IMG/VR virus record: IMGVR_UViG_3300042505_000324
Coordinates: 1-62,368 of that record
DNA from: a virus
Lineage: Duplodnaviria; Caudoviricetes
DNA length: 62,368 nt
Direction: 5' to 3' (one strand)
Under the pieces are notes generated by a model, which was not told the DNA's origin, searched no databases, and was given only the letters and a program-made list of their open reading frames with translations. This document shows positions 4,993-52,091 of this stretch, piece after piece; positions within the stretch are counted from its first letter, which is position 1, and every line of letters begins with the position of its first letter. The position numbers were made by a program, and so were the translations under genes.

Positions 4993-5010
4993 AGCTGGTT
5001 AAATTAAAGA
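4993..5010 (+). promoter_or_regulatory. putative phage-RNAP promoter, class B copy 1 (packaging/structural operon)
   Basis: AGCTGGTTAAATTAAAGA, identical 18-mer at 45572; 13-bp core also at 52079. Confidence 0.7.
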
Positions 5011-5359
5011 AGATTAACACAAACGTTAAGCTAACGCTTTCTAAACTATATATTTCTTACACTAGCTTAGCATTATGCTACAAGTAGTAAGGGTATTGCA
5101 CCGTAAGGTGCATTGTATAGATAATAAAATAAAATAAAATTAGGAAAGCACTAGCTATGAGACTACACCCAATTATTGACTTAACTATATCTATAATTAT
5201 AACTATAGTAATCTGTAGCTTAGCCTATGTATTATACAATTTATTATGCTTTAATTATATTTATTTTTGAAGAATAAAGTGAACATTAAACTATGCTGGT
5301 GAGAAGCGTTAAGTGCTTGAATTAGCAGAGAGTTTTTAATAAAAATTATTGGAAAAATT

Positions 5360-5863
5360 ATGACTGAGGACAATGAATCTCAAACTGATATGATGCCTTC
5401 AAAAAAGAGAGGTAGAATAGCAGGCACTAAAAATAGAATAACAGCTAAGAGCAGTTTAAGGACACTTGCGAAACTAGGATTCGATCCCATTGTAGAGATG
5501 GTGAAACTGAATGACAGCCTAGACGCAGAAATGTTCTTAACAAGATATGATGTGAATGGTGAACTCAAAGTTAAGTATTCCCAGATGGCTTATGCACAAT
5601 TATTAGCAACTAAGAAAGCATTATTAACAGATTTATTACGATACAGTTATGCCAGAGTTTCTGAAACAGTTATGATTGACGATCAAAGGTCTACAGGATT
5701 AGTGGTGAATCTTACTAAAGAGGGTGAACCTGTAGTTGATGCCAGTTATGAAATGTCTGAGTTCGCCTTAGACTTAAATGAAGATGATGAAGATGATGAA
5801 CCCGACCATATTGATGAACAAATCTCAGCTATAGCAAAGTTGCGCTTAAATGTTCGTTCATGA
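5360..5863 (+). CDS. terS: terminase small subunit (putative)
   Basis: GRIAGTKNR (GRxxGxxN) motif, helical body, acidic tail; upstream of TerL. Confidence 0.65.
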   Translation: MTEDNESQTDMMPSKKRGRIAGTKNRITAKSSLRTLAKLGFDPIVEMVKLNDSLDAEMFLTRYDVNGELKVKYSQMAYAQLLATKKALLTDLLRYSYARVSETVMIDDQRSTGLVVNLTKEGEPVVDASYEMSEFALDLNEDDEDDEPDHIDEQISAIAKLRLNVRS

Positions 5864-6158
5864 AAAGCGAAAAGTAATAATATTTGCTATTGATGCTAAA
5901 ATAGCTGAGACATGTGCTATGGATAATGCTTTGGATTCTTTCTTATTCTATGAGAAGTTAAGTGGTTTTGGTGAAATGTGTAGTAATGGTGAGATTAGAC
6001 CTGATACACATACTGTGTGGATACATCCTAGTGCTAATCTAAGACCCGATTTATTCATAATAAGAATAATTTCAGAGAACTATGGTTTTCAATTAACATT
6101 TAAAGATAGTTATGATGTATATGCAAATCTATTAGATACACATCCTAATTTACAATGA
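5850..6158 (+). CDS. hypothetical protein
   Basis: ORF track; lies between terS and terL. Confidence 0.5.
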   Translation: MFVHEKRKVIIFAIDAKIAETCAMDNALDSFLFYEKLSGFGEMCSNGEIRPDTHTVWIHPSANLRPDLFIIRIISENYGFQLTFKDSYDVYANLLDTHPNLQ

Positions 6159-6165
6159 GAATATT

Positions 6166-7515
6166 ATGAGCAATATAAGCTTACATCCTACACAATCAGA
6201 TGTGTATAGGGATTTCTTTGTAGAAAAATTAAAAAGATTTATTGTAGTGGTGTCCTCACGTGGATGGGGCAAATCATTCTTTGCTGCTACTGCTGCAGCT
6301 ACCGCAGTCCACGAATTACTTTTGTTAAATCCAAGAGTTCCCCATAAGGTTGTGTATGTTATTGCACCTACTTATTCACAAGTGACAGATATTTACTTTC
6401 CATTACTAGCCTATGATTTAGGACTAGCTTCTATTTGTATAAATTCCTCAAGAGCAATGGGTCGGTTTTGGTTTCATAATGACGTAGAGTTACGCTTAGT
6501 TTCTTACGAAGCAGTAGAAAGATTACGTGGTATGGGTGCTTACTTTGTTGTATTAGACGAAGTAGAATCTTGGACTAAAGGTGTTGGATTAAAAGAAGCT
6601 TGGGAAGGTATTATACAACCCTGTATAGCAACTCGATGGTCTCCTAAAAGAGCTGAAGCATATAGGTCTCCTAATGCTGGTAGAGCTTTAATTATCGGTA
6701 CACCTAAGGGTTACACATACTTCTATGACATGTATAATCGTAAAGATGTTGATTCTGATTGGGGTGGTTACCATTTCGATTATAAACAATCTCCATATTT
6801 AGACCCAGAAGAAATAGAACGCATTAGACATACCATTGACCCATTGGATTTTGGTCGTGAGTATCTTGCTTCATTTAGTGAATCTGGTAATAGTGTTTTC
6901 CATTGCTTCAATCGTAATAAACATGTTAGAGCTGACTTAGAAGACTTTATTAATACTAGTGATTATAAAGAAGATGTGCATATTGGCATCGACTTCAACG
7001 TTGGTATTCAAGCTTCATCTTGTTTCGCTGTAAGAGGTGGACAAGTACATTATCTTGATGAATTCAAAGGTCATCCAGATACAGATACATTAGCTAAAAT
7101 AATTAAAGCTAAATATATCGATAAGGGACATAAAGTACACGCTTATCCAGACCCTAGTGGACGTTCAAGAAAGACTTCTGCAGCTGTAGGTGTAACAGAT
7201 TTCAGTATTTTAACTCAATATGGTATTAATTGCCATGCACCACTTAAAGCTCCAGCATTAGTAGATAGTGCTAAATGTGTCAATCGTATGTTAGAGACAG
7301 CTGCTGGTGAGATTAATATGTATGTGCATCCTAGATGTACAGGTACTATTGTTTCATTAGAACGCACTATTTGGACTGATACCAATCCAGATGTTGCTAC
7401 TATTGACAAATCAGAAGGTGTAGAACACTTCTCAGACGGCATTAGATATTCAATATCTCACTTGTTTCCGATTAATGTTGGTCAGAAACGTATTGCTAGA
7501 GGCTTCAAATTTTAA
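6166..7515 (+). CDS. terL: terminase large subunit
   Basis: Walker A SRGWGKS, LRG, Walker B VVLDE, GTPKG motif III, nuclease GIDFN and HFSDGIRY. Confidence 0.95.
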   Translation: MSNISLHPTQSDVYRDFFVEKLKRFIVVVSSRGWGKSFFAATAAATAVHELLLLNPRVPHKVVYVIAPTYSQVTDIYFPLLAYDLGLASICINSSRAMGRFWFHNDVELRLVSYEAVERLRGMGAYFVVLDEVESWTKGVGLKEAWEGIIQPCIATRWSPKRAEAYRSPNAGRALIIGTPKGYTYFYDMYNRKDVDSDWGGYHFDYKQSPYLDPEEIERIRHTIDPLDFGREYLASFSESGNSVFHCFNRNKHVRADLEDFINTSDYKEDVHIGIDFNVGIQASSCFAVRGGQVHYLDEFKGHPDTDTLAKIIKAKYIDKGHKVHAYPDPSGRSRKTSAAVGVTDFSILTQYGINCHAPLKAPALVDSAKCVNRMLETAAGEINMYVHPRCTGTIVSLERTIWTDTNPDVATIDKSEGVEHFSDGIRYSISHLFPINVGQKRIARGFKF

Positions 7516-7525
7516 AGGAATTATT

Positions 7526-7714
7526 ATGATTTTCGAACACGTACCAGAGGCACAAGTAGCAAATATGCCTGAACCAAATAATGCTGTATTACAACCTAAT
7601 GGGTTATACACAGTATACACGCATAAGCATTACACAGCACCATTATCTATGGATTTGGCTGATACAGTATCTGTTAGTGAAGAACCTAAAGTTAAGAAAC
7701 AACGGAGAGCGTAA
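7526..7714 (+). CDS. hypothetical protein
   Basis: ORF track 7475..7714; start moved to the ATG after AAGGA. Confidence 0.55.
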   Translation: MIFEHVPEAQVANMPEPNNAVLQPNGLYTVYTHKHYTAPLSMDLADTVSVSEEPKVKKQRRA

Positions 7715-7896: not shown

Positions 7897-7905
7897 GAGA
7901 GCAAT

Positions 7906-10574: not shown

Positions 10575-13500
10575 ATGGCTACTATTGTAACAAGAGAGTT
10601 AGGAGCTACACCGAAAGGAAGTCCTCTAACTAATGCAGAAATTGATCAAAACTTTATTAATTTAAATAGTGCAATTACAGGTGGAGATATTACAGGTGGT
10701 TCTAGTTCTATTGATAATGCTATTGTTAGATATAATGGAATTACAGGTAAAATAATTCAAAATTCTGGAATTACTATTGATGATAATAACAATATAGATC
10801 AAGCTAATGCGATTACATTTGATGTAACTCCAGCTACATTACCTACAACACCAGGCACTCTTTATTGGGATAGTGCTGATGGTAATCAGACGTTAAGTTT
10901 GATAATGGCTGGCGGTACTGCCACACAACAAATTGGTGAAGAACTATATTATAGAATTAAAGCATCCGCACCAATCACCAACGGGCAAGTGGTTATGTTT
11001 ACGGGAACGGTTGGCGCAAGTGGGGCTTTAACAGGCGCACCAGCAACGGGATTAACTGCCGCAACCGCTTCTTATGTCATGGGGATTGCAACGCAAGATA
11101 TGGCGACTAACGATTGGGGATATGTAACTTCATTCGGTTTAGTTCGTAACATTAACACTTCGGCTTTTACGGCTGGCGATATTTTATATTTTAATCCATC
11201 TGTAACGGGTGGCTTAACAACAACAATTCCAACCGCACCAAACGCAAAAGTTCAAGTTTGTGCAGTCATATATTCAAGCGCAACCGTTGGTTCATTATTT
11301 GTTCGCCCATCATTTGGTGGCATTTTAGGTCAATACGAAGGTGATGTTAATTTTACAAGCATAGCAGCTGGAAACTTAATCTGTAGAAACGCAGGCAACA
11401 CTGCTTGGGAAAACGTTACAGCAATACCAAATACACAAGTATCTGGTCTTGGTACAATCTCAACACAAAATGCAAACAATGTAACTGTTACTGGTGGATC
11501 GATTAATGGAACAACATTAGGCGCTACAACTCCAAGTACGGTGGTGGCTACTACGGGTAATTTCACTGGTCCAACTCCAACAGGCAATGCTGTAGTTGTA
11601 AGAACTACGGGTGGTGACGCAGTATCTATTACCACCAGAGCAACTGGGTTAGGTGGCGTAATCTCAGCTACAGATACTACATTAGCTACTTATGCCAATC
11701 TAGATATTATATGTAATGGAGCTTTTATTAAGGCTAACAATGGTGCAACAGTACTTACAATTAATAGTACTGGGTTAGCCGTAACAGGGAATTTAAGTGC
11801 AACAGGCACTCTAACAGGTGTAACAGACCTAACAACTACAGGTAACACTATCTTAGGCAATGCCTCTACCGATACATTAAACGTAGGTAATGGGGGGTTG
11901 GTTAAAGATGCTAATGGAAAACTATTGCTTGCTGCAACTTCTACAGGAATAATGTTTGATATATTAAGTACTAATCAGCAAACAAACGGTATTGATGTAA
12001 TTAAAGCAAGTCCTTATACTTATACAGATATTTACGGTTGTGGTACTGGTGGTACTTGGCAAGGTGTTATACGTTTCTACACATCTAATAATACAGCAGC
12101 TGTGGAACGTATGCGTATTGACTCCGCAGGTCAATTAGGTGTAGGAATGACTACAAGCTATGGAAAAGTATCCATAGCAAATACAAATGCTAGTGGTGGA
12201 TTACATTTATCAAATGGAACAACAGATACAGGAGGCTACCTAAATTCCACAGGGACAACTGAACTTATGGTGTCTGCTGGCGCAAGTTATAATAGCTACT
12301 CTGCCCCTAATTTTGTAATGAATGCTAAATCTACTATAGCAAGTGGTATTTATTTTGGTGGTGGAGTTACATCATTTTGGAATAATACAGGATTAACTGC
12401 AGGTACTACATTTAACCGAACAGAACGTATGCGCATAGATTCCTCAGGCAACGTAGGGATTGGTATAACACCAACAGCTAATACGACATGGGCTGGCGGA
12501 ACTGTAATTCCAGCCTTAGATATGGCGAAATCTTCACAATATAATGTTATCAATCTTAAATCTTATTCCACAAATGCTAATTCTTGCGGTATACTGGTTT
12601 TAAGTCACTCAAAATCCGCAACAATAGGTACACAGGTAGCAACTGCTAATAATGATTATTTAGGTTGGCTTGCTTTTGAAGGTGTAAATAGCTCTAATAC
12701 TATAGCTGGTGGCGCTGTGATTGGTGCATATCAAGAAGGTGCTGCAGGAGTAACTTACGTACCAAGTCGATTAGTGTTTTGGACATCAAATGGGACAACT
12801 GCACCAACAGAACGCATGCGCATTGACTCCAATGGAGTTGTAAGTGTAGGAGCCAACGTAACTACTGTTCAATCTGGGTGGGCAGGGTCTGGTAATAAGT
12901 TACAAATAAGCAATGCTGGTGTATCTACGACTACTCAACAAATTATTAAAACTTATTCTGCTTCTACTAGCTTTGCTGGGGGTCTCTCTCTTGGTAAATC
13001 TGGAAGTAATACACTTAATACATTAGCTATTACTGGTACAGAAACTCTTGGATTTCTTACATTTGATGGTGTAAATAGTTCTAATACTGTATTCTCTGCT
13101 TCCGCTATTACAGGCAATGGTACAGCAACACCTGGTGCATCTTACGGTGCAGGGGCATTATTATTCTGGACTAGTAATGGTGTTTCATCTGCTGCAGAAC
13201 GGATGCGTATAGATTCCTCAGGCAATGTAAATATATCAGGGCTTACCGCTTCACAAATAGTGATGACAGATGCAAATAAGAATTTAGTATCCTCTACTTT
13301 ATCTTCAGCTAATATAGCATCACTTAATGCAGCACAAACATTTACTGCGCCTCAACGTGGTTCTGTAACTACTGCCAATACTGCTGCCTTTGATGAAAGT
13401 GTAACTAATAACTTCCAATGTACACCTGCCGCAACAGTTGCGTTAACTTTTTCTAATCATACTGCTGGTCAATCAGGCTATGTATTACTTATTAATACTG

Positions 13501-13643
13501 GTGGGTATGCAATTACAGCTGCAGCTACTACTAAATTAGGCGCTGGTACATTAGCAGCAATTAGTACTGCAGGAACTTATTTATTAAGTTATTTCGATAA
13601 TGGTACAAATGCATACGTTACAGCATCGGGGGCATTAGCATGA
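10575..13643 (+). CDS. long tail fibre
   Basis: N-terminal KGSPLTNAEIDQNF; four ERMRIDSxG repeats; G/T/A/S-rich. Confidence 0.85.
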   Translation: MATIVTRELGATPKGSPLTNAEIDQNFINLNSAITGGDITGGSSSIDNAIVRYNGITGKIIQNSGITIDDNNNIDQANAITFDVTPATLPTTPGTLYWDSADGNQTLSLIMAGGTATQQIGEELYYRIKASAPITNGQVVMFTGTVGASGALTGAPATGLTAATASYVMGIATQDMATNDWGYVTSFGLVRNINTSAFTAGDILYFNPSVTGGLTTTIPTAPNAKVQVCAVIYSSATVGSLFVRPSFGGILGQYEGDVNFTSIAAGNLICRNAGNTAWENVTAIPNTQVSGLGTISTQNANNVTVTGGSINGTTLGATTPSTVVATTGNFTGPTPTGNAVVVRTTGGDAVSITTRATGLGGVISATDTTLATYANLDIICNGAFIKANNGATVLTINSTGLAVTGNLSATGTLTGVTDLTTTGNTILGNASTDTLNVGNGGLVKDANGKLLLAATSTGIMFDILSTNQQTNGIDVIKASPYTYTDIYGCGTGGTWQGVIRFYTSNNTAAVERMRIDSAGQLGVGMTTSYGKVSIANTNASGGLHLSNGTTDTGGYLNSTGTTELMVSAGASYNSYSAPNFVMNAKSTIASGIYFGGGVTSFWNNTGLTAGTTFNRTERMRIDSSGNVGIGITPTANTTWAGGTVIPALDMAKSSQYNVINLKSYSTNANSCGILVLSHSKSATIGTQVATANNDYLGWLAFEGVNSSNTIAGGAVIGAYQEGAAGVTYVPSRLVFWTSNGTTAPTERMRIDSNGVVSVGANVTTVQSGWAGSGNKLQISNAGVSTTTQQIIKTYSASTSFAGGLSLGKSGSNTLNTLAITGTETLGFLTFDGVNSSNTVFSASAITGNGTATPGASYGAGALLFWTSNGVSSAAERMRIDSSGNVNISGLTASQIVMTDANKNLVSSTLSSANIASLNAAQTFTAPQRGSVTTANTAAFDESVTNNFQCTPAATVALTFSNHTAGQSGYVLLINTGGYAITAAATTKLGAGTLAAISTAGTYLLSYFDNGTNAYVTASGALA

Positions 13644-23833: not shown

Positions 23834-23932
23834 GTATAGGGTGCATCCGAAATCTAGAGCCTATACCTCAATAGATTTCGAAAATACAAAGAGTTGTACT
23901 CTTAATTAATTAATAAGGCTGTGCCTTAAGGA
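23834..23932 (+). promoter_or_regulatory. structured leader of the scaffold gene (pseudoknot-compatible stems plus two UGU-triloop hairpins)
   Basis: 23834-40/23860-66 and 23848-56/23872-80 are complementary; AAGAGT-TGT-ACTCTT and TAAGGC-TGT-GCCTTA, the latter overlapping the SD. Confidence 0.5.
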
Positions 23933-43900: not shown

Positions 43901-44934
43901 AAGCTCTAAATATTGCAGAAACGAGTACAGGTTCTATGGTATGGACATTTTTACCAGTTGCTACACTAAATCTAGCTGCTAATAGCGGAAGTAGCATACA
44001 AAATAAAAATTCTAGTGTAATTAATACAAATACTTATAATTGCGCTACTACAATTACATCTGCAAACTGTACAAGTATAACAGCTAATGTTGATGTAATG
44101 AGCTATCGTGGAAACGGCTCTAATCAATATTTCTATAGACAAGTTAGTTATAGAGTAGGATATAGGATAAGTGGTTCAGGAAGTGCTTATACATTTACAA
44201 CAGCAAGAGTAGTTACAATAGGTGCTGTTACATCAGGTTTAATAACAGATAATATTACTGCATCGTTTCCCTCTGCAAATACTTGGGAATTTTATATAGA
44301 GTATACAGCGAGTGATGTAAACACTAGTGTATTTGGTGCGATAAGCTACAACTATAGTACTGAAGATTTAATACCAATAACTAGTGCAGTTAATGCATTT
44401 AATAGTTTATCATACGGTGCAAATGCTTCGATTACAGTGACAGCTAGTGCAGGTTTATCAGTTTCCTCATTAAATACTTCTTGGGAAATTTATCAGATAG
44501 ATTACACATACACTATTAATTATAGTTGGTCTACTTGGAATTACCCGAGATACCAAACAGGTCTTAGTGTGGTTACTAGAATGAACGGTACTGTAGATTT
44601 AAACTTTGTATGCTGGGCACAAAATTGGTACGCAGGTATTCCTCCATCTTGGGATGGTTCTGTAGCGGCTTATACAGAATATGCTACTAGAACAGGTTCA
44701 AATTTATCTATTACAGCTATTACATTAGAGTCAACAGCTATAAGAAATGTGGATAAGAATTCTACAGTAAATGCTACGATTGGAAGCAGAACGGCTAGAG
44801 TCTATAGACGTAGTTTAGTTACAAATACTACTACACCTTATAATACTTTTAACTTCACTTCATATACTTTTAATCTAACATCATCACAAGTATTGGCTAC
44901 AGGTACTTTAAATTGGATGGCTATTGGAGATTAG
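37930..44934 (+). CDS. central tail tip / host-specificity protein (gpJ-like) with repeated domains
   Basis: LPVQYG, SNNPALCLLDYLTN..YGRG, LEPGDLIKV; FN3-like and duplicated domains; IDGNLIVTGSI coil. Confidence 0.9.
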   Translation: MISAILFVVSMVVQVAAAKAARKRQKKLEREAKERADAAKGFQIASEGEASLLPVQYGRGLLGGVRVYHNTSNNYVNAGVATNSGATIFQNSLDANRTGVKHEFLTVQTALCFGDIQSCQMIVVDGRNYTDTKFNSVVGAKEYLDEGRTMGGHRFHFYPSGGYADPLLTSNYSITRPFTNTAYVTAVYALNRDDYQYNGVPDVKFIVEGLKIHSIVGDTTLSLSTTKAYSNNPALCLLDYLTNTVYGRGLEIEYIDLPSFKYAAELCDKTVLSSVPLEGEYWSAKGGTRSIKLYECNLTISPSRTIRDNIETILETMGQAELVWSGGKYKISIEYPSIYANNTSYPIDTVVQYSNNLYRAKIASTSPSSPSDNITYLENNIYWTQDVISAYLTDDDIIRSGDNTIAWPNASERYNFCTVRFLNESKDFVEDSVSWPFKAGSIPGPAVDRGVWSLTGVYGRSDIVTYLGIKYQCAGNIMYSGDWDQSIIYVAHERVLYNGNQYTLNTNAPALIEAYYVAQLAANPSYVRPEFQYAQFPPSNATYWTLLVNPTTTLSPFVDTAWVPYNDANVYNVYREEDSGHPLEADFFEAGITDYYHAMAKAEQRVRFSRSSTVYKFTIITRHTNLEPGDLIKVSSNVLNIPGEVMRIEEIKVDSKGNAEITASKYDARVLAWNANDNEIVAPRILFDEEIPQCTGLAYTTTGLFNSLSSGRLSWTAPDNIRIEAFDVKYTTTAIGSVTNTTVWIDIGSTSNNYFELPSIPTATYTLTVVTRINNRSIAPRNNGLGSQWPKLSVGINRAVIGDSIFASVSIFKYSATIPTIPTGGVFDFDTMTLTTVPVGWSVVAGESVLPLYVAQTRASKPAMSDTDTALTWVTPVLFKAAFVKLSSPNMVINIPYAGASNGFDYSNAVGNSVLISGTTDITLNTDVSYSIYSSVNCTVTIDNTNTANKGKFTVTALSDKTGSFNIAATYVGVTYYLTISLLKLDIEYIKDLTAPPIATTLNATVGVNTVFVNITTIPSYTAGHGHNFTRIYAATWDGISALPTFSAATVIKEFSGISDTISYPTGTKLRLWSKNVSKDGIESSSAYGGINGVAVALPLIPYGMLNEGIYSVYVATIYKQVGSLPATPTGGTYNFSTNAKVAPAGWSFTKPTSSTIPTYACEYIYSTANTTATLTATTWSTPVIISQNGDNGVSALSVILSNDTHTIPTDSAGANGVYTGSGTDIHLYEGATELLYDGVGTTNSSWKIVATPTSITTGLITDAGAYASVGVHSLMTADTANISYLISGVRSNGATFTLTVTQTFAKAKAGISGTNATLYYLDILAPVIFKQEPDAATIGLHTSTTITGKLLIGASLSTYGFITVTGNGDTEATTATANTVTLSPLATAGRTSYTVKLYNQATVAGATLLDTQVIPVVFKGATGTAGVNAITAILSNESHVFPSAADGTVNTYVGSGTQIRVYEGATELLYDGVGTANSSWTVTSAVTNITRGSLTDSGAYVTVGDHSGVATGTDTSLITYTITGKSSIGTLFTITKTQSFSKAKAGTAGSNGTNSTSYWLVSSVAALQKTIGGVFTPTTITFSAMSQSGVTTPAIYSGRYKIYENGSGTAAYTSVADEASKVYTPSGTGVTSIKAELYLAGGVVTRLDEQTTPVVVDGATGGVGANGTSIFVLELYSTGITVAPTSTTATYNFSTDTFTAGNLTAGWSRTMPNGSTTATYRTSFTFSTTTPTVAVTAGIWSTPVIVAQNGTNGTNGINGTNGATGARGSGVFYSTVALANWDDATATARVLAVTGTANVEGDTVTETFSDIWSMTKIWSSGAWAISGQVIDGNLIVTGSIGATKITAGAITAGSAIIANGAIGSAQISNLTADKILTGELNVAQTINMGGNLKLSGEGWIESYSASAYSRLGDYSRMDAGNFKLFRYVPALSQTFEYAYLKRNEMGTAVNNTSVTLPGYWKTQPKLIVSPYNLQFYNTLYSGQNQSILCQALNIAETSTGSMVWTFLPVATLNLAANSGSSIQNKNSSVINTNTYNCATTITSANCTSITANVDVMSYRGNGSNQYFYRQVSYRVGYRISGSGSAYTFTTARVVTIGAVTSGLITDNITASFPSANTWEFYIEYTASDVNTSVFGAISYNYSTEDLIPITSAVNAFNSLSYGANASITVTASAGLSVSSLNTSWEIYQIDYTYTINYSWSTWNYPRYQTGLSVVTRMNGTVDLNFVCWAQNWYAGIPPSWDGSVAAYTEYATRTGSNLSITAITLESTAIRNVDKNSTVNATIGSRTARVYRRSLVTNTTTPYNTFNFTSYTFNLTSSQVLATGTLNWMAIGD

Positions 44935-44935
44935 T

Positions 44936-45475
44936 ATGTTTAATTATTATAAACCAGAAAAATTAGGTTTACATTTAGAGATACCGAAAACTGATGACGA
45001 CTTGCAATTCATAGCGATGTTATATGCTAGAGAAAATCCAATTGGTATGATACCTATAGATTCTCAGAAGTGCCTAATAGAGTTTAGAAAAGCATTAAGC
45101 TCTGGTTCTTATGTAAGATTAATAAAATTTAATAATGAGATACATGGTTTTATTGCTGGTATGCAAATAAGTACTATGCATTCATCAGAGAAAACTGTGC
45201 AACAAATGTATTATTTCTGCAGATTAGAAGGTATGTTAGCCTTTAGAGCTGTTGTACTTGCTCACGAAGGTTTGATAAAATATGCAGAAGGTCTTAAGGC
45301 AAAGTACGTAATGTCTACTTGTAGTCAACTCTATAAAAATGATAATCTATGTCGTATTTTAAAATTACAAGGGTGGTCGCAATTTGGGTATGTTGCACTT
45401 TGGAACACTTCGCACCATAACTCACCATCTCAGACACCGAGCCGTGAGCATAGTCAAAAGTTAAAATCAGTTTGA
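44936..45475 (+). CDS. GNAT-fold-like protein (putative acyltransferase)
   Basis: IHGFIAG strand, LIKYAEGLKAKYV helix-strand, RILKLQGW end; canonical acetyl-CoA loop absent. Confidence 0.5.
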   Translation: MFNYYKPEKLGLHLEIPKTDDDLQFIAMLYARENPIGMIPIDSQKCLIEFRKALSSGSYVRLIKFNNEIHGFIAGMQISTMHSSEKTVQQMYYFCRLEGMLAFRAVVLAHEGLIKYAEGLKAKYVMSTCSQLYKNDNLCRILKLQGWSQFGYVALWNTSHHNSPSQTPSREHSQKLKSV

Positions 45476-45571
45476 TACCTCACTATCAACCCGCCTAAAA
45501 TTTTTGGTCTTATCTTTGTGTTCTTTCTATAATTAAAAACCATAGGAGGAACACTCGTTAAGCCTTGAAAT

Positions 45572-45589
45572 AGCTGGTTAAATTAAAGA
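45572..45589 (+). promoter_or_regulatory. putative phage-RNAP promoter, class B copy 2 (lysis operon)
   Basis: Exact 18-bp match to 4993..5010. Confidence 0.7.
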
Positions 45590-45705
45590 TTCAAGCCATT
45601 TTCCCCAGTATTATATCTAGAATAAGCTAGAGGGAGACACTAGTAGCTAGCGTGGAACTTTAAGGATGTAGTTAATCTAATATAATCATATCATAAAGGA
45701 ATAGA

Positions 45706-46218
45706 ATGTTACCATTATTAATACCTATTTTATCATCACTAGCCAGCAATGGTTTAAACACTTTAGTAAATGCAATAACAATTAAAGGCAAGGAAATCGT
45801 AGAAGACAAATTAGGAATCAAAATCCCTAATGATGTTAACGATTTAACACCTGAATTATTATCTCAACTTAAAATGAAAGAAATGGAACATGAATCCGAT
45901 CTCTTGGCTATGGCTCTCGAACAAAAGAAACTTGAAATCGAATCAAAAAGAATCGACGCAGATAGTGAAAAAGCAGCCTCAGAAGCAGTGACTGCTAGAT
46001 GGTTAGGTGATATGACTTCAGATTCTTGGTTATCTAAGAATATTCGTCCTATGACTTTGATTTTTATTTTAACTGTATATACTATATTCTCATTGTTAAG
46101 TGCAGCACATATTGATGTGAATGTTGAATATGTCAAATTATTAGCACAATGGGGTATGATTGTTATGTCAGCATACTTTGTAGGAAGAACAGTTGAGAAA
46201 ATTAAGGGAGTAGAATAA
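45706..46218 (+). CDS. holin (GTA/3TM holin-like)
   Basis: DMTSDSWLSKNIRP...TM segments...YFVGRTVEK; coupled to the endolysin. Confidence 0.8.
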   Translation: MLPLLIPILSSLASNGLNTLVNAITIKGKEIVEDKLGIKIPNDVNDLTPELLSQLKMKEMEHESDLLAMALEQKKLEIESKRIDADSEKAASEAVTARWLGDMTSDSWLSKNIRPMTLIFILTVYTIFSLLSAAHIDVNVEYVKLLAQWGMIVMSAYFVGRTVEKIKGVE

Positions 46219-46559
46219 TGAGCCCTTTGATTGAAAATCAACAAGCATTTCTTTTAGACTTCTGTAAGCTTATTGAATTTGCGGTTAGTAAAGGTTTCAC
46301 TGTAACAGCTGGTGAACTCTTAAGAACACCCGAACAGCAAAAGATTTATGTAGATACTGGTCGTAGTAAGACTATGAATAGTAATCATATTAAGAAATTA
46401 GCTGGAGACTTGAATTTCTTTAAAGACGGTCAATATGTTTGTGATAAAAATGTATTAGCACCTCTTGGGGATTTCTGGGAGAAATTAAATGTAAGGAATA
46501 AATGGGGCGGACACTTTAATAATTTTAAAGATATGCCACATTTCGAACGTAATATGTAG
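46218..46559 (+). CDS. endolysin, M15 family peptidase
   Basis: RTPEQQ, SKTMNSNH...AGD, WGG.F...DMPHFE. Confidence 0.9.
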   Translation: MSPLIENQQAFLLDFCKLIEFAVSKGFTVTAGELLRTPEQQKIYVDTGRSKTMNSNHIKKLAGDLNFFKDGQYVCDKNVLAPLGDFWEKLNVRNKWGGHFNNFKDMPHFERNM

Positions 46560-46564
46560 TATGT

Positions 46565-46602
46565 AGCCCTGATATATCATAACTGATATGTTAGGGCTTT
46601 TT
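46565..46602 (+). terminator. intrinsic terminator after the lysis cassette
   Basis: 15-bp stem (2 G-U pairs) AGCCCTGATATATCA / TGATATGTTAGGGCT plus T tail. Confidence 0.8.
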
Positions 46603-46678
46603 AATCGGAAACTTATGATAGATTATTTATTGTGTTATAAAGAAGCATTCTTATATGGGATGGTTTTTGGTTTAATAA

Positions 46679-46710
46679 TTGCGGAAATTAGGGTATCTTA
46701 TATGAAGAAC
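46679..46710 (+). promoter_or_regulatory. putative phage-RNAP promoter, class A copy 1 (early)
   Basis: TTGCGGAAAttagGGTATCTTATATGAAGAAC; matches 48509..48540 except in the 4-nt spacer. Confidence 0.7.
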
Positions 46711-46743
46711 TAAAATATTCTTAATTCAATTAACGGGGATTTT

Positions 46744-47052
46744 ATGATTTACAAAATAGAGGATAAAGAGTACAATGTTAAAATAGTAACAGAACATTAC
46801 ATGACAGATAATAGCCCTGCTCTCTCGTTATATTCTAATGATGAACAAGGTTATTATATGCCATTCTTAAGAATAAGTGTTAGACATGCTATAAGACCTG
46901 CCGAAGGTTGTATTTGGGTTAAGGATTATAGCGAGAATGAAGGTATGTGTAAGTGGTTAGAAGAAAATAATATTGCAGAAGTAACTGGTGTAAAACTCGC
47001 TACGGGGTTCGTAGAATTAATAGAAATGAGATTAAAAGGAGAAATAGAATGA
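46744..47052 (+). CDS. early hypothetical protein (DUF4313-like)
   Basis: VKDYSENEGM..WLEENNIAEVTG motif. Confidence 0.55.
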   Translation: MIYKIEDKEYNVKIVTEHYMTDNSPALSLYSNDEQGYYMPFLRISVRHAIRPAEGCIWVKDYSENEGMCKWLEENNIAEVTGVKLATGFVELIEMRLKGEIE

Positions 47053-47177
47053 AAGACTTTGTACAAATAGTTGAGGAATTAACTATGGGAACACTAATGG
47101 AACAACCTGAAATAGTGGATGAACCAGAGCATTATTCAGAGGAATCTGAAACAACTTTTGAAGAGACGGATGTCTAA
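47049..47177 (+). CDS. very acidic 42-aa early peptide
   Basis: Hand-translated; 14 D/E versus 1 K; AGGAG SD; ATGA overlap. Confidence 0.55.
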   Translation: MKDFVQIVEELTMGTLMEQPEIVDEPEHYSEESETTFEETDV

Positions 47178-47321
47178 GGAGAATTAAAATGATTGATTAT
47201 AAAGATCGAGGATTAGCAACAGAATATGAACCCTCACTTACTATCAAAGCGGGTTGGGTTGTATTATTGGGTATTTCTTTTAGTTTGTTCGTAGTTTATT
47301 TATTTAGTTAAGGGGATTAAA

Positions 47322-47603
47322 ATGACAGCTGTAAAAGCAACAAAGACGCCACCTATGAAGTTAAAAATAGCAGAGCTTGAACAGAAGATTTTTAATTTAA
47401 ACACAAGTTTAGAGTTAGAACGTCAGGACTACTCTGTACTAGAGAGCGAGTTAATGAAATCTACTTTAGAGATCGCTATGTTAAATAAGGAAATCACTAG
47501 ACTCTACTCTCTTAATAAAGCTTTAACATTCTCATTAACTGAAGCTTTAATCCCTGAATCTACATTTACTGCGTTTGTAAAAAGATTGGTAGGGTTAAAA
47601 TAA
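47322..47603 (+). CDS. coiled-coil hypothetical protein
   Basis: ORF track. Confidence 0.6.
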   Translation: MTAVKATKTPPMKLKIAELEQKIFNLNTSLELERQDYSVLESELMKSTLEIAMLNKEITRLYSLNKALTFSLTEALIPESTFTAFVKRLVGLK

Positions 47604-48004
47604 TGACAACTACTCGTAAACGTAATAACTTATCTGCAGATGAAGTACACTCTATTAAACGTTTAATAAAAGAAGGTGTCTCAGATTTTGAGATAGCTGA
47701 ACAATTAAGCGTTCATAAGAGTACTATTTATTCTATAAGATCTGGTAAAATTTGGAAAGATGATTTACATTATAGAAATTCAAAAGATAAAAGTTTTCAT
47801 CCCGAAAACTATCCTGATTCTCTAAAGTTTAAATTCGGAATTCCATTAGCGATTGCGAGTAGTCCAATTAAAGGGCGTACATATGAAATGCAGCATAGAA
47901 AAGAAGTACCTCATAAAACAGTGGTAAGTATTGGTAGTAGCTTTAATACATTGGGTTTTGTTAGTGGTGGTTCACACACCTCTGGAGCTCATTTGTTTAA
48001 TTAA
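47603..48004 (+). CDS. helix-turn-helix DNA-binding protein
   Basis: LSADEVHSIK...SDFEIAEQLSVHKSTIYSIRSGKIW. Confidence 0.75.
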   Translation: MTTTRKRNNLSADEVHSIKRLIKEGVSDFEIAEQLSVHKSTIYSIRSGKIWKDDLHYRNSKDKSFHPENYPDSLKFKFGIPLAIASSPIKGRTYEMQHRKEVPHKTVVSIGSSFNTLGFVSGGSHTSGAHLFN

Positions 48005-48012
48005 GGAGAATT

Positions 48013-48549
48013 ATGCAAATTTCTTTATCAAAACGAAGTCTTGTAATATTAATGTTATTAACTACGTTAATTTTTACGAAATCAACAAAAGATAATGAAG
48101 CGTTTAAAAAACATAATCTAGTAAATAAAGTATCGAAGATAAGTTTAACAAGAAGGGAGTTTAATTGTTTAGTAAAAAATATGTATCATGAAGCAAGAGG
48201 CGAAAGTAAATTAGGTATAGCTTTAGTTGGTCAAGTTACGTTAAATAGAGCGATTAGTTCTAAAAGGGATCTTTGTGATGTTGTATATGAACCTTCACAA
48301 TTTTCTTGGACACTTGAAAAGCCTAAAGAAATTTCTAATGAACAATTAATTATCGTAAATGAAGTAGGTCAGGCTCTGATTCGAAGAGAGTTTGACATAC
48401 CACATCGCTTTTTACACGTTAAATATTTTTATAATCAATTTAAAATACGTGCGCCAATATGGACACGCAAATTAGACGTAGTAGGAAGTGAAGGAAATCA
48501 TATTTTTCTTGCGGAAAAAGAGGTATCTTATATGAAGAACAAGCAATAA
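48013..48549 (+). CDS. SleB/Hydrolase_2 cell-wall hydrolase with N-terminal signal/anchor
   Basis: CLVKNMYHEARGE...VTLNR...CDVVY..SQFSW...GNHIF. Confidence 0.9.
   Translation: MQISLSKRSLVILMLLTTLIFTKSTKDNEAFKKHNLVNKVSKISLTRREFNCLVKNMYHEARGESKLGIALVGQVTLNRAISSKRDLCDVVYEPSQFSWTLEKPKEISNEQLIIVNEVGQALIRREFDIPHRFLHVKYFYNQFKIRAPIWTRKLDVVGSEGNHIFLAEKEVSYMKNKQ
48509..48540 (+). promoter_or_regulatory. putative phage-RNAP promoter, class A copy 2 (early)
   Basis: TTGCGGAAAaagaGGTATCTTATATGAAGAAC; overlaps the end of the hydrolase gene. Confidence 0.7.
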
Positions 48550-48585
48550 CGTTCTTATAGTAATCTAACCAATAGGAGATTTAAA

Positions 48586-48858
48586 ATGTTCAACTTTGTT
48601 ACAAAAACAGGTAGTATAGCACTTTCAATTTTTAAATTCGCAATTTCATCTTTAGTGTGGATTGCATTATGGGTAACCATTACGGCAACAAGTTTTCTAG
48701 GTATATATTTTGTTAGTAGCGCAGCTATGGTAGTGTTTTCTATTGTAGCAGCTATTGCAGGTATTATGTTTGTTGTATGGTTTATTAGTTTCGTTTGGAA
48801 AGTTATCCGTTTCTTTTATCCAAAGGAAGAGACACCAAATGAGCCAATTAGTTCTTAA
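48586..48858 (+). CDS. hydrophobic membrane protein
   Basis: Almost entirely TM; AGGAG SD. Confidence 0.65.
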   Translation: MFNFVTKTGSIALSIFKFAISSLVWIALWVTITATSFLGIYFVSSAAMVVFSIVAAIAGIMFVVWFISFVWKVIRFFYPKEETPNEPISS

Positions 48859-49123
48859 ATGTTTTATATCTAAGGCTAAAGAACCTAAACTCGCTTATAA
48901 CGAGAATTCTTTTACCTTAGATAATTCTTTTGTTTTCACAGTAAGAGAATTTGATTTGCAGAAACTCTTTATATCTGAAATAAAAAAAGTTAAAGGTTCT
49001 ATATTTAATCCAATTTGGGTTAGAGCTATTTTTATAATAGACAGTATAGACCCTACTCCATTTTTTGTAGAAGAAAAATATATTGGTAGTCTTCAAACCA
49101 AATTATTAAGATTTTATCCTTAA
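48839..49123 (+). CDS. hypothetical protein
   Basis: ORF track 48755..49123; ATG at 48839. Confidence 0.5.
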   Translation: MSQLVLKCFISKAKEPKLAYNENSFTLDNSFVFTVREFDLQKLFISEIKKVKGSIFNPIWVRAIFIIDSIDPTPFFVEEKYIGSLQTKLLRFYP

Positions 49124-49127
49124 CACC

Positions 49128-49204
<77 letters not shown>

Positions 49205-49367
49205 CAATAATAAGAAGGTTTGCAATGAATACTGAAGCAACTCACGTTATAATCATAATGTTATTACTTTTAATATTTACTAAGTTATCTTTTGATGCTA
49301 TTATCTTAGGAACTATTTGTATTTACTTGGCACAATTAAAATGGTCGACATAATATTATTGATTATT

Positions 49368-49376
49368 TGTTATAAT
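49368..49376 (+). promoter_or_regulatory. possible sigma70 extended -10 (TGnTATAAT) upstream of the second RNAP gene
   Basis: TGTTATAAT about 40 nt before the ATG; AT-rich context weakens the call. Confidence 0.35.
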
Positions 49377-49414
49377 ATAATTAAACATATTCCAAAACAT
49401 CTTTAAGGTTTATA

Positions 49415-51670
49415 ATGAATTTAACGAGACAAAAAATAGTTGATTCAATAAATAGTAGAATGGATACTGAACTCTCAGCACAGAATCCAGTTAAGATCTT
49501 AAAAACAACCCCGATAGATATCCTCGTAGACACTACCATAAGTGTTACATATCTGTATACTCGAAATTCTAAAAAGAAATCTATACTTCTTTCTGAAGTG
49601 ATTTCAGCTATAGGGCATGGTGTACGTAATAAACAAGAGATTAAAAGAGACTCATCTCTTGCAGCAAAGACAGGTGCATTTCTTTTAAATACATTAGATA
49701 TATTAGGTTTAATATCTGTACAATTAGGTCAAAGTTCGAATGGACATGCTACCTATATCATAACAGTATTAAACGAAGAAGCATTAAGTAGTTTATGGCT
49801 TCAAATACCTATTGAACATACTGAGAAATTACCATCTTTAACTCCGTACGATGATTGGACTTCTACCCAACATTCTACAGGTGTTATGTTAGTTAAAACT
49901 GCTAATAGAGATGTATTAGCTACACTAAAACCTGAAACGCATCCGATAGTATTTAACGTAGTAAATAGAGCACAAAAAGTGGGATGGACAATAGATACAG
50001 ATATCTATGAACTACAAGCTTGGGCATTACGTAATAAAACTGATGCATTCTCTGAAATTTGGGCAATGCAAAATCCACAAGCTAAAATATCTAAAGTGCG
50101 AGAAGCAAAAGCCATTGGCGATATAGCTCGTAGGTTTTTAGATAAAACATTTTATCATTTATATTATTTAGATTTTAGAGGAAGAAAGTATGTAGCTACA
50201 GCATATCTACACGAACAAGGGTGTGATTTGTCTAAAGGTTTATTAAGACGTAAAGACCGTAAAAAGATAACCGAACAAGGTTTCTTTTGGTTAATGGTTG
50301 CTATTGCAAACACTTGGGCAGGTAGTGCAGGTAGAGAAGATGAAGCAAAAACAGATAAAATACCTTTAAATGACAGAGTATATTGGGCGTTGGATAATGA
50401 AGAGATATTATTATCCTATGCAGAGAATCCTAAAGTAAATGTAGGTTGGATGAAAGCAGATAAACCGTGGCAATTTATATCAGCTTGTTTCGAACTAAAA
50501 CGATTTAGAGATTGGCAAAAATTATGCAGTAGATTAATTCAAGAAGAAGAAATTCTTGAATATGATTATCTAACTAATTTTGAAGCTTATATTGATGGCA
50601 GTACTAATGGCAGTCAGCATCTTTCTGCATTAACTAAAGATGAAATAACTGCACCATTAGTTAATTTAGTTCCACTAGACTTGCCAGGTGATCTATATAC
50701 ATATGTAGGCGATCATGTATGGGAAAGTTTAGAGAAACTTAAAAATAACCTTACTAAAGAAGAAATCCTAGATTGTGAAGCAGTAATTGAAATTATCACA
50801 ATGATGAAACAAGACATACAAAAAGCAGAACTTAAAAGTGAGCTTAGAAAGAATCTTATAGAAGCTTTGCGTATGTTTAGAAACGAGAATTTAGAAGTGA
50901 TAAAAAAGGCAGCTGTAGTATTTTGGTTAAGAATTACAGATGCGAAACACAAACGTAAAATTTGTAAAAGAAACACGATGACTATTGCATATGGTGCTAG
51001 TGCATATGGAATGGGTTCACAGCAAGCGGAAGATGCACGTAAACATGGTATTGATCAATTAACTGCAATCGAAACACAATGGGCTACTTTTATGGGTAGA
51101 GCGGTATACGATGATTGTAAGATTAGTTTAAAAAGACCAATGAGATTACTTAGTGTATTTGAAGAAGCAGGTAGAGCAGCTGAAGATAAAGAAGAGTTTT
51201 TATCTTGGACTGTTCCTATTACTAACTTTCCAGCTGTGCAACATTATACAGAAGGTAAGGTTAAAAAGATATGGGTGCAATATGGCGCACCCGTTGGTAA
51301 AAGATTGTCGACTGGTAGATATGAAAATACTTATCAATTAGCAATTTGTCATATAGAGGAGCCGATTTATTCCAAGAGGAAACAAGCACAAGGTGCAAGT
51401 CCAAACGCAATTCATAGTTTAGACGCAGCTCATCTAATGCTAACCGTTAATAAAGCAGAATTTCCTATAACTACTATACATGATTCGTTTGGTGCATTAT
51501 TACCAGACTTACCAGAACTGTTTATTCTAATTAGAGAAACATTTGTAGAATTATATGAAGCAGATCCGTTAATTAAATTGATGGAAGATATTAATGGTGA
51601 TATAAGCCAAGTGGAGATTGGTAATTTGGATATTAAAAATATCTTAGACAGTGAATACGCATTTGCGTGA
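49415..51670 (+). CDS. T7-type single-subunit DNA-directed RNA polymerase (751 aa)
   Basis: LDFRGRKY, DKPWQF, motif A IDGSTNGSQH, motif B RKICKRNTMTIAYG, PNAIHSLDA, motif C IHDSFG. Confidence 0.95.
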   Translation: MNLTRQKIVDSINSRMDTELSAQNPVKILKTTPIDILVDTTISVTYLYTRNSKKKSILLSEVISAIGHGVRNKQEIKRDSSLAAKTGAFLLNTLDILGLISVQLGQSSNGHATYIITVLNEEALSSLWLQIPIEHTEKLPSLTPYDDWTSTQHSTGVMLVKTANRDVLATLKPETHPIVFNVVNRAQKVGWTIDTDIYELQAWALRNKTDAFSEIWAMQNPQAKISKVREAKAIGDIARRFLDKTFYHLYYLDFRGRKYVATAYLHEQGCDLSKGLLRRKDRKKITEQGFFWLMVAIANTWAGSAGREDEAKTDKIPLNDRVYWALDNEEILLSYAENPKVNVGWMKADKPWQFISACFELKRFRDWQKLCSRLIQEEEILEYDYLTNFEAYIDGSTNGSQHLSALTKDEITAPLVNLVPLDLPGDLYTYVGDHVWESLEKLKNNLTKEEILDCEAVIEIITMMKQDIQKAELKSELRKNLIEALRMFRNENLEVIKKAAVVFWLRITDAKHKRKICKRNTMTIAYGASAYGMGSQQAEDARKHGIDQLTAIETQWATFMGRAVYDDCKISLKRPMRLLSVFEEAGRAAEDKEEFLSWTVPITNFPAVQHYTEGKVKKIWVQYGAPVGKRLSTGRYENTYQLAICHIEEPIYSKRKQAQGASPNAIHSLDAAHLMLTVNKAEFPITTIHDSFGALLPDLPELFILIRETFVELYEADPLIKLMEDINGDISQVEIGNLDIKNILDSEYAFA

Positions 51671-51684
51671 AGAAAGGAATAGTA

Positions 51685-52056
51685 ATGATACTCATAAGAC
51701 GTTTGGAAGATGTGGCAAAGATATCGGATAAACTACATTCAAAGGCACTTCATTTATTATTAGAACCATTATCAAAACGTGGTGAAGATTATAATATGAA
51801 ATTTATCTATATCGATTCTGAAGAAGATTATGATATGTTATCAGAACAGGAAAACTTATTTACCGAAGATTGGGAAGAAATAAGTTATTTTGAAAAAGAA
51901 AAGTTTTATGAAATTGTTATAAGCTCGGAAGACGAAGGATATGTCATATTTATTCCATTGAGTTTAACTTCAGAAGAGATTAGTAATCAAATTAATATAT
52001 TTGAAGAAGCCAACACAATAGAAAGATATATTGATATCGTAGAAAGAATTACTTAA
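51685..52056 (+). CDS. acidic hypothetical protein
   Basis: ORF track 51667..52056; D/E-rich. Confidence 0.6.
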   Translation: MILIRRLEDVAKISDKLHSKALHLLLEPLSKRGEDYNMKFIYIDSEEDYDMLSEQENLFTEDWEEISYFEKEKFYEIVISSEDEGYVIFIPLSLTSEEISNQINIFEEANTIERYIDIVERIT

Positions 52057-52076
52057 GTATTATTAACCGTATAATG

Positions 52077-52091
52077 AACTGGTTAAATTAA
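52077..52091 (+). promoter_or_regulatory. putative phage-RNAP promoter, class B copy 3 (replication operon)
   Basis: AaCTGGTTAAATTAA shares the 13-bp core with 4993 and 45572; intergenic. Confidence 0.6.

Follow-up and report, generated by a model that had tools for sequence, protein, structure and literature searches.

How does a phage that encodes two RNA polymerases (RNAPs) divide the transcription of its genome between them? This question is raised by the IMG/VR virus record IMGVR_UViG_3300042505_000324 (Duplodnaviria; Caudoviricetes), of which the whole stretch of 62,368 nucleotides was analysed here and is called the window. The window is a one-strand, siphophage-type genome of 62 kb with a G+C content of about 34%, in which open reading frames (ORFs) of every size lie on the + strand only. 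An earlier sequence-only reading had proposed a fully phage-encoded transcription cascade, in which an RNAP fused to a MuF head protein and carried in the virion reads one repeated motif (class A), and a newly made, free-standing RNAP reads another (class B). On recheck, all the coordinates of the two polymerases, the two motif classes and the terminators held. In our judgement, the balance tips slightly in favour of a two-step transcription cascade in this lytic siphophage-type genome, leading from the MuF-polymerase acting on class A to the free polymerase acting on class B. The architecture of such a cascade is well supported, and we infer which enzyme serves which motif. The elements concerned are as follows.

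19344-23828, + strand: MuF::RNA polymerase fusion gene, 1494 aa (PF04233 and PF00940)
21444-23825, + strand: T7-like polymerase part of the fusion, residues 701-1494 (motifs and model)
49415-51670, + strand: free-standing second T7-like RNA polymerase gene, 751 aa (PF00940)
46679-46710, + strand: class A copy 1, TTGCGGAAATTAGGGTATCTTATATGAAGAAC, 33 nt 5' of the ATG at 46744; family-matrix score 43.7
48509-48540, + strand: class A copy 2, 45 nt 5' of the ATG at 48586; family-matrix score 42.0
4993-5010, + strand: class B copy 1, AGCTGGTTAAATTAAAGA, heading the packaging/structural module (terminase, portal, head, tail)
45572-45589, + strand: class B copy 2, heading the holin/endolysin-like genes at 45706-46559
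52077-52095, + strand: class B copy 3, CTGGTTAAATTAACCCT, heading the replication module; family-matrix score 18.4

Two RNA polymerases of T7 type

The fusion gene encodes a Phage_Mu_F domain (PF04233) at residues 145-250, corresponding to positions 19776-20093 (E 5.6e-14; 53.3 bits against a cut-off of 29.6), and an RNA_pol domain (PF00940) at residues 995-1432 (E 4.1e-11; 42.8 bits against a cut-off of 22). Its catalytic residues comprise a T/DxxGR-like motif (DHRARIYDRG, residues 861-870), D1011 in motif A, K1077/Y1085 in motif B and H1392-D1393 in motif C. These four motifs are invariant in 26 homologues of 59-74% identity, which suggests an active polymerase under selection. A profile built from the 26 homologues reaches T7 RNAP (E 0.0024) and N4 RNAP II (E 0.019), and its T/DxxGR-like, A and C motifs align with those of T7 RNAP. 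By contrast with the profile and the fold, through which alone T7 RNAP was reached, a phmmer search of the whole fusion against PDB sequences returned nothing useful, and no match by sequence was found between the fusion and the virion RNAP (vRNAP) of phage N4.

The fold was examined with an AlphaFold model of residues 701-1494 (pLDDT 80, pTM 0.79), which matched T7 RNAP in Foldseek with an E-value of 6e-16. Using VIA, the model aligned with the T7 RNAP chain 1s76_D at Z 25.8 (rmsd 3.5 over 543 residues) and with T7 and mitochondrial RNAPs at Z 24-26 (rmsd 3.5-4.2 over ~540 residues), while the values for the N4 mini-vRNAP were Z 14.7-15.8. The fused polymerase models as a right-hand fold of the T7/mitochondrial type, including a T7-like N-terminal part, and not of the N4 type.

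At E <=1e-5, 409 protein clusters are homologous to the fusion. Both Pfam domains are present in nearly every one of the 120 listed, and the sources call them only SPP1 gp7 family putative phage head morphogenesis proteins. MuF domains are described in PMC5512222 as known carriers of enzymatic domains that are thought to be delivered alongside the DNA. The MuF::polymerase fusion is, judging by its domains, a candidate virion-delivered polymerase.

The second enzyme had been described in the sequence-only reading as intact and clearly different from the MuF-fused one, and both statements were borne out. The free polymerase (751 aa) matches PF00940 with an E-value of 4.5e-59 (200.9 bits) and aligns to T7 RNAP at 4e-40, with motif A (DGSTNGSQH), motif B (RKICKRNTMTIAYGAS), motif C (TIHDSFG) and a FAFA-like C-terminal end (EYAFA); the key residues are D394, K519/Y527 and D690. 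When the two polymerases were compared by BLASTP, only short local similarity around motifs A and C was found (best E 0.001). Being alike only at the motif level, they are not recent duplicates. Both enzymes keep all the catalytic motifs and are intact T7-type polymerases, for which promoter-specific synthesis is predicted. In the stretch of the free polymerase that aligns with the specificity loop of T7 RNAP there is a unique Arg (STGRY), where 33 relatives have Y or H. The two genes go together: they were found on one contig in 12/12 cases, comprising 7 contigs common to both locus lists and 5/5 further ones that were searched.

Insertions are frequent in the polymerase genes of this group. 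The fusion of EBPR siphovirus 1 (L151, 25771-31144), for instance, is annotated as gp47 and gp49, with an HNH endonuclease (gp48) between them. Among the relatives of the free polymerase (L034-L037, L039, L040, L043, L046, L049 and L050), several match across ~3 kb, compared with 2.25 kb.

Two repeated motif classes and the proposed units behind them

The two motif classes proved to be real: each has a direction, and each recurs at syntenic positions in numerous relatives. Class A has the two-block family form tGCGgaAAA-N4-gGTATCTTATATGA and spans ~32 bp. Its copies in the window are a 32-nt pair, 88% identical and exact over 19 nt, and the second overlaps the final codons of the ORF at 48013-48549. 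These two matches compare with 0.01 expected from 100 shuffles, and the best non-A site in the window scores only 1.2 with the class A family matrix.

The conservation of class A was examined in loci of up to 25 kb per contig. The free-polymerase-side set consisted of 55 IMG/VR loci (50 distinct; 882 kb) from relatives 42-67% identical to the free polymerase, in which the 12-mer TATCTTATATGA was sought with <=1 mismatch; loci with >2.5 kb of upstream sequence were regarded as testable. The results showed that the 12-mer lies upstream of the free polymerase gene on the coding strand in 35/35 testable loci, at a distance of 0.7-7.3 kb (median 2.1 kb), and that it is kept in loci of 31-62% G+C. 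Across the 882 kb there were 75 sites upstream on the coding strand, 2 elsewhere on that strand and 0 on the other. The 57 distinct exact sites give the consensus taaantGCGgaAAaanngGTATCTTATATGAaa, in which 14 positions reach or approach 2 bits, and many of the copies in relatives stand directly after a terminator hairpin and 20-45 nt before a start codon. The fusion-side set, that is, the structural-module loci around the fusion gene (L071-L150; 1.09 Mb), contained no exact class A match on either strand. With one mismatch allowed, it gave 1 coding-strand match (L140) and 13 opposite-strand matches, all at one spot of conserved coding sequence inside the fusion gene. Searches of 185,579 prokaryotic genomes with the two-block pattern gave 0 matches and then 2 single matches in unrelated contigs of metagenome-assembled genomes, with ~1 expected by chance.

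The two class A copies fold weakly (-2.5 and -4.6 kcal/mol, with 20 and 10 of 200 shuffles folding equally well), and a TCTT/AAGA pairing of 4 bp is lost in relatives ending ..TATGATAAC. An N4-like hairpin promoter was ruled out by this weak folding and the lack of a conserved hairpin. Sigma-54 and Bacteroidetes promoter forms were also considered and did not fit when their consensus was compared by eye.

Class B has the window form CTGGTTAAATTAA and the family form CCCGTTAAATTAACCCt, with the proposed core GTTAAATTAA. The window form occurs exactly 3 times, always on the + strand (4995, 45574 and 52079), where 0.01 are expected. Copies 1 and 2 have the 18 nt of AGCTGGTTAAATTAAAGA in common, and copy 3 is the one nearest the family consensus; downstream of copy 2, a CCCCAGTATTATA block resembles a CCCCTnnTATTAT block at the equivalent place in relatives. 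In many relative loci the most frequent long repeat is CCCGTTAAATTAACCCT. The consensus from 100 distinct sites is A.CCCGTTAAATTAACCCt, whose downstream half carries only ~0.1 bit of information. Sites are strongly biased toward the coding strand, both in the fusion-side loci (71:2) and in the polymerase-side loci (63:1). They lie <=3 kb downstream of the free polymerase in 37/45 loci and <=8 kb upstream of it in 16/25, and in 14 of these 16 the order is class B, class A, polymerase. A site also follows the fusion stop by <=60 nt, before the scaffold/capsid genes, in 30/52 loci, and by <=1.5 kb in 7 more; 15/52 loci have none after the fusion gene, among them L071, the nearest relative of the window. 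That two unrelated repeated motifs exist, and that class B precedes the packaging/structural, lysis and replication operons, had been proposed from the letters of the window; the gene contexts, the expected counts and the conservation in relatives bear this out.

The class B of the window is lineage-specific, with CTG for CCC in 3/3 copies and AGA for CCC downstream in two. An exact IMG/VR search with the 18-nt form of the window found only 2 contigs, neither with similarity to the window. In L053/L054, which have the most divergent loop of the free polymerase, canonical class B was not found and class A is kept. A further string, GTTAAATTAAAGA, occurs exactly 3 times in the window (0.01 expected), once at 21156 in the fusion gene, and marks a possible fourth site.

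21153-21168, + strand: possible fourth B-like site, CCTGTTAAATTAAAGA, inside the fusion gene at codon 605

No class B match was found inside the fusion gene of L071-L150, and this site is not conserved. Lying ~100 codons before the modelled polymerase part, it could yield a polymerase without MuF if active.

Just behind the fusion gene, two tiny TGT-loop hairpins, GAGTTGTACTC and GGCTGTGCC, stand at 23890-23925, where the ribosome-binding site for the scaffold-like gene follows directly. The same hairpins occur in L071, L079, L089, L093, L109, L110, L113, L114, L120, L126-L128 and L147, which are relatives that have no class B before the scaffold-like gene, and they may be an RNA operator or processing signal.

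The motif copies are set among hairpins followed by T runs and among the genes of the class A block:

4878-4962, + strand: terminator-like hairpin (28 pairs) with T19 at 4944-4962; -42.4 kcal/mol, z -14.8
45706-46559, + strand: holin/endolysin-like genes
46565-46603, + strand: terminator-like hairpin (15 pairs) with T5, z -6.5, ending the lysis unit before class A copy 1
46744-49123, + strand: presumed early gene block after class A, with small ORFs and a DUF4313 protein
47603-48004, + strand: HTH protein, in the class A block
48013-48549, + strand: cell-wall hydrolase (PF07486), in the class A block
49128-49200, + strand: hairpin, 5-nt spacer and T31, z -5.0, between the class A operon and the free polymerase gene
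49225-49353, + strand: small hydrophobic ORF between the T31 tract and the free polymerase gene

The terminators that the sequence-only reading had placed directly upstream of the copies at 4993 and 46679 are very stable folds, and its description of the genes behind class A as early-type holds roughly: small genes are present, but the HTH protein and the cell-wall hydrolase lie among them. We propose that the three hairpin and T-run elements bound transcription units. If the map is circular, one unit appears to comprise the two class A copies, 46744-49123, the hairpin-T31, the hydrophobic ORF, the free polymerase gene and one more ORF, and another the class B copy at 52077, the replication genes, the small ORFs and the hairpin-T19 at 4878-4962. 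The class B copy at 4993 followed by the packaging, head and tail genes appears to form a third unit, and the copy at 45572 with the lysis genes and the hairpin at 46565 a fourth. No terminal repeat was found at the ends of the window, and no ORF crosses the junction when these are joined.

The element before the free polymerase gene recurs in the group. A hairpin, a pyrimidine spacer and a T tract of T10-T33 are kept in all 20 relatives listed, 150-290 nt before the gene; there are relatives with a similar small ORF (judged by eye) between tract and gene, and no conserved or phage-type motif was found in that interval in the relatives listed. For the very long T tracts of the window (T31 and T19), attenuation and slippage are among the conceivable roles. 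The contig of L036 begins inside the tract that precedes the free polymerase gene.

Contigs from sequencing runs cover part of this region. Sixteen runs contain part of 45400-52400, and four of them are RNA libraries, whose contigs on 44001-62368 include the class A operon (X5, 46727-46889; X4, 46768-47842), the free polymerase gene and the replication genes. These contigs speak for presence only, not for starts, strand or level, and may contain DNA; stretches that they do not cover, such as that upstream of 46727 (X5, X10 and X14), are no evidence. In X4 and X14, positions 48311-48561, including class A copy 2, are replaced by 242 other letters, so related strains differ exactly there.

The proposed cascade and its alternatives

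How could these elements work together? In the cascade that we favour, the MuF::polymerase would be made late, be built into the head beside the portal through its SPP1 gp7-like MuF part, and enter the cell with the DNA. There it would start at the two class A promoters, read as a double-stranded signal of ~32 bp, and transcribe the small early genes and, by reading through the hairpin-T31, the free polymerase gene. The free T7-like polymerase would then read class B, and so express the replication (52077), packaging/structural (4993) and lysis (45572) genes.

Several links lead to this scheme. Class A is the only class ahead of the free polymerase gene, which means that its reader is present before the free polymerase exists, and a reader encoded by the phage is suggested by what its sequence is, by how little it varies among genomes of very different composition and by the fact that cellular genomes lack it. 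The MuF-fused polymerase is the only candidate in the genome for this role, being encoded beside the portal gene and attached to a domain known for taking enzymatic cargo into the capsid. The free polymerase, in turn, fits class B because it is a T7-type enzyme and class B varies among lineages as T7-group promoters do. It also fits because the CTG change in all the window copies goes with the unique Arg in the specificity-loop region, and L053/L054 have the most divergent loop and no canonical class B found.

Part of the programme might be left to the host. In a T7-like scheme, host RNAP would read class A or nearby host-type promoters, the free polymerase would read class B, and the fusion would have another task, such as priming, DNA pulling or a late boost. 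A sigma-70-like site (TTGGCA-16-CATAAT, 10 of 12) does lie at 49327-49354, after a strong terminator and just before the free polymerase gene. Class A contains TATAT, in L043 TTGAC stands 17 nt before TATATG, and packaging of the fusion is only predicted. Such sites are not enriched, however, as 35 were found between 44 and 53 kb against 43.9 expected. Instead of TTGACA, the conserved 5' block of class A reads GCG(g/c)(a/g)AAA, and in the window it lies 14 nt from TATATG. A 14-nt core that stays invariant across loci of 31-62% G+C is unlike host promoters, class A is essentially absent from the prokaryotic genomes searched, and the invariant catalytic motifs of the fusion speak for an active polymerase under selection. 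We therefore consider the T7-like scheme unlikely.

The assignment of enzymes might also be swapped, with class A served by the free polymerase and class B by the MuF-fused enzyme, be it free or in the virion. We find this highly improbable, given that class A occurs only ahead of the free polymerase's own gene (35/35 loci) and could not start the programme if that polymerase were its reader, and that a few injected molecules would be a poor source of the bulk late transcription headed by class B. In favour of the swap, class A ends in TATATGA, reminiscent of the TATA-G region at which T7-group promoters start (compare the T7 promoter in PMC13029058, Table 2), and both enzyme-promoter pairings are predictions; class B, on the other side, has AATTAACCC in common with the binding half of the T3-type promoter printed in PMC13029058, and it changes along with the specificity-loop region of the free polymerase (window and L053/L054). 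Finally, one or both motifs might serve as binding sites of a phage regulator or as RNA processing, replication or packaging signals. We give this very little credence: both classes are almost strictly confined to the coding strand and occupy the gaps in which modules begin, in many cases immediately behind a terminator, and their copy number and placement fit transcription units, not an origin or a pac site. An HTH protein is indeed encoded in the class A block, and in its family form class B has an almost palindromic core, GTTAA-A-TTAAC, but the flanks, with CCC on either side, are asymmetric, and 2/3 window copies interrupt the palindrome.

Several observations weigh against the favoured cascade in its simple form. 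A stable hairpin with T31 separates class A from the free polymerase gene, and together with the sigma-70-like site behind it this means that host polymerase may make the free polymerase; the spacing of TTGAC and TATATG in the class A of L043 would also suit a host-type reading of class A. The window has no class B copy before its scaffold and capsid genes, where 37/52 relatives have one, so ~40 kb of late genes would depend on one promoter. The core of class B is flanked by CTG.. in this phage and by CCC..CCCT in relatives, which departs from the family form, and the link between specificity loop and promoter variant rests on one lineage (n=1). The terminal repeats of phage DSS3_VP1 and of one related contig would, if they are true ends, make the early region internal, unlike that of N4, T7 and P23-45. 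More generally, packaging, start sites and enzyme activity are predictions from sequence. Overall, the two polymerases and the two directional motif classes, arranged as early versus middle/late, stood up to analysis, but the 'fully phage-encoded' part of the earlier proposal was not borne out, in view of the hairpin-T31 and the sigma-70-like site.

It is possible, though we would put it at somewhat less than an even chance, that a large and so far undescribed siphophage group, with at least 409 fusion clusters and the Naomviridae as its cultured edge, transcribes its whole genome without host polymerase by means of two T7-type enzymes. The first would travel as the C-terminal cargo of the MuF head protein, bind an almost invariant double-stranded promoter of ~32 bp and turn on the second, which would serve every later gene. 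If so, this would be the first virion-delivered polymerase of T7 type proper, and it would explain how some members can afford non-canonical DNA containing deoxyuridine (dU).

Gene order, wider meaning and comparison with known phages

The remaining genes of the window follow a siphophage-like order.

1-4867, + strand: small ORFs
6166-7515, + strand: terminase-like gene
10575-16108, + strand: two large fibre-like proteins, between the terminase and portal genes
17758-19335, + strand: portal-like gene (DUF4055), directly 5' of the MuF::polymerase fusion
29059-36651, + strand: tape-measure protein, 2530 aa, within the head/tail genes
52144-62083, + strand: SSB, DNA polymerase, exonuclease, primase-helicase and ribonucleotide reductase

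When 50,697 phage records were searched at the nucleotide level with the initial 25 kb, nothing matched, and the window contains no Rfam match and no tRNA detected by ARAGORN. Searches of 20 further small or unassigned ORFs against PHROGs and Pfam revealed no sigma factor, deaminase or RNAP-inhibitor family, and most of these ORFs had no match.

The interval between terminase and portal is an unusual location for fibre-like genes. The first of the two proteins has 1022 aa with internal repeats of 387 nt, and the second, of 822 aa, contains SPRY and DUF7483 domains; the equivalent position in DSS3_VP1 is taken by a 'virion structural protein' of 2575 aa. The replication module also shows irregularities. 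The ribonucleotide reductase gene is split into 59130-60386 and 61370-62083, each of which matches phrog_367, and the ~1-kb gap dividing it holds a LAGLIDADG homing endonuclease ORF (60462-61085); the 59130-60386 part begins with an HNH-like stretch. The RNA-library contig X4 joins 60422 to 61071 in this region, skipping 648 nt. The gap could be an intron-like insertion, or the contig could come from a strain without the endonuclease; Rfam gave no match to a group I intron in the region. A SegE-type GIY-YIG endonuclease lies among the replication genes at 56801-57346, where the PHROGs label 'NAD synthetase' looks like a carried-over name.

To our knowledge, virion-delivered polymerases are represented by only a few models, namely N4, phiKZ/AR9, crAss-like phages and P23-45. 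The theme of virion and non-virion polymerases is known from N4 and P23-45; the MuF-fused, T7-type version is new, as is the conservation of class A and class B across uncultivated relatives. In our literature search, neither a MuF-polymerase fusion nor a pair of polymerases in Naomviridae nor such a cascade turned up in any paper, although supplements may hold annotations. If the cascade is true, fusion to a MuF head protein would be a further, independent way to inject a polymerase, here one of T7 type, and the strategy would be common in nature, as suggested by 409 protein clusters and loci of 31-62% G+C. Class A and the co-varying class B would then offer two new orthogonal polymerase-promoter pairs for biotechnology. 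The cultured phages DSS3_VP1 and DSS3_PM1 of Ruegeria pomeroyi DSS-3 have the same architecture and dU-DNA, so that the idea can be tested directly; it may connect modified genomes with transcription that needs no host.

At the protein level, EBPR siphovirus 1, with a fusion 54.6% identical, and the roseophages DSS3_VP1/PM1 (fusion 27.5%, free polymerase 32%) come closest among named phages, although they are distant in sequence. DSS3_VP1 and DSS3_PM1 (Naomviridae) and EBPR siphovirus 1 have the same one-strand order as the window, that is, terminase, portal, MuF-polymerase, capsid, tape measure, lysis, small genes, second polymerase and replication. In their records, the fusion appears under no other name than 'head morphogenesis' or 'minor head protein-like', and the term 'RNA polymerase' has 0 occurrences in the main text of PMC8323127 and PMC12669031, where supplementary tables could mention these genes. 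In EBPR siphovirus 1, class-B-like sites stand at 4427, 14131 and 31223, at the corresponding places. In DSS3_VP1 (NC_055826.1; L152 and L153), a pair of 32-mers resembling class A stands at 35790 and 36237, again between the tail genes and the free polymerase. It also has at least 10 copies of an intergenic motif, ATAGG(G/T)T(G/A)CGTTAAAGA(GGGGG), which contains CGTTAAAG (e.g., at 2332, 6580, 7408, 19202, 19236, 29396, 45925, 46392, 46551 and 59196). Its terminal repeats are 127 bp long, and direct terminal repeats are assigned to one related contig as well. Neither the motif, the class-A-like pair nor the terminal repeats appear in the main text of PMC8323127, in which no virion proteome was seen either. 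The DSS3 phages replace deoxythymidine (dT) by dU (PMC8323127); the window shows no sign of dU for dT, and no deaminase was found in it. The Pelagibacter phage Kolga, which has a MuF gene without a polymerase part and a free polymerase 28% identical, was considered as a fusion-less relative and set aside as too distant; it has no class A, no class B and no sigma-70-like enrichment upstream of its polymerase.

Among the well-known systems, T7 carries no polymerase in its virion and leaves both the early genes and the gene of its own polymerase to host RNAP, and the promoters of its group span ~23 bp (-17 to +6), with the start at a G after TATA. The window resembles T7 and the Autographiviridae in its homologous free polymerase (4e-40), which appears to drive the replication and structural genes from a short repeated promoter, and in its hairpin and U-run terminators. 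It differs in the class B core, which has 13-17 nt and no conserved TATA-GGG start region, and in the free polymerase, which at 751 aa has a shorter N-terminal part. The jumbo phages phiKZ and AR9 are reported to transcribe independently of the host, with a packaged and a later polymerase acting on different promoters; these enzymes are multisubunit, related to cellular ones and encoded in genomes of >200 kb, as against two single-chain enzymes in 62 kb here.

In phage N4, a podovirus, the virion enzyme has ~3500 aa with a central mini-vRNAP and acts on hairpin promoters on single-stranded DNA, the early promoters being DNA hairpins with a 5-7 bp stem and a 3-nt loop. Virion RNAP, the two-subunit RNAP II and then host RNAP act in this order. 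According to PMC4496689, the N4 virion polymerase, a member of the single-subunit family, transcribes early genes, which supply the second phage polymerase. The logical order is the same in the window, where one polymerase is joined to a head protein and the gene of the other lies downstream of class A, as it does in 35/35 testable relatives. The earlier description of the system as analogous to N4 but made of different parts proved apt. The fused enzyme is a 1494-aa MuF fusion in a genome with a tape-measure gene and is nearer in fold to T7/mitochondrial RNAP (Z ~26) than to the N4 mini-vRNAP; class A has no conserved hairpin; and the second enzyme is a single chain of 751 aa, not a two-subunit RNAP II. 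As class B here also heads late genes, host polymerase may be unnecessary, unlike in N4.

The closest logic is that of P23-45, a Thermus siphovirus. As described in PMC10770324, its virion polymerase, fused to the tape measure, transcribes the pre-early genes at the genome end, including the gene of a second polymerase. The phage has two distinct promoter motifs, of which that of the fused enzyme is conserved in relatives having the fusion; both polymerases are of the two-barrel (cellular) type, and late genes are transcribed by host RNAP (PMC10770324). The window likewise represents a siphovirus with a polymerase fused to a structural protein, a second polymerase and two motifs, and its class A, presumably the motif of the fused enzyme, likewise lies ahead of the second polymerase gene, to judge by position and conservation. 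What distinguishes it from P23-45 is that its enzymes are right-hand, T7-type polymerases and that the carrier is a MuF head protein instead of the tape measure.

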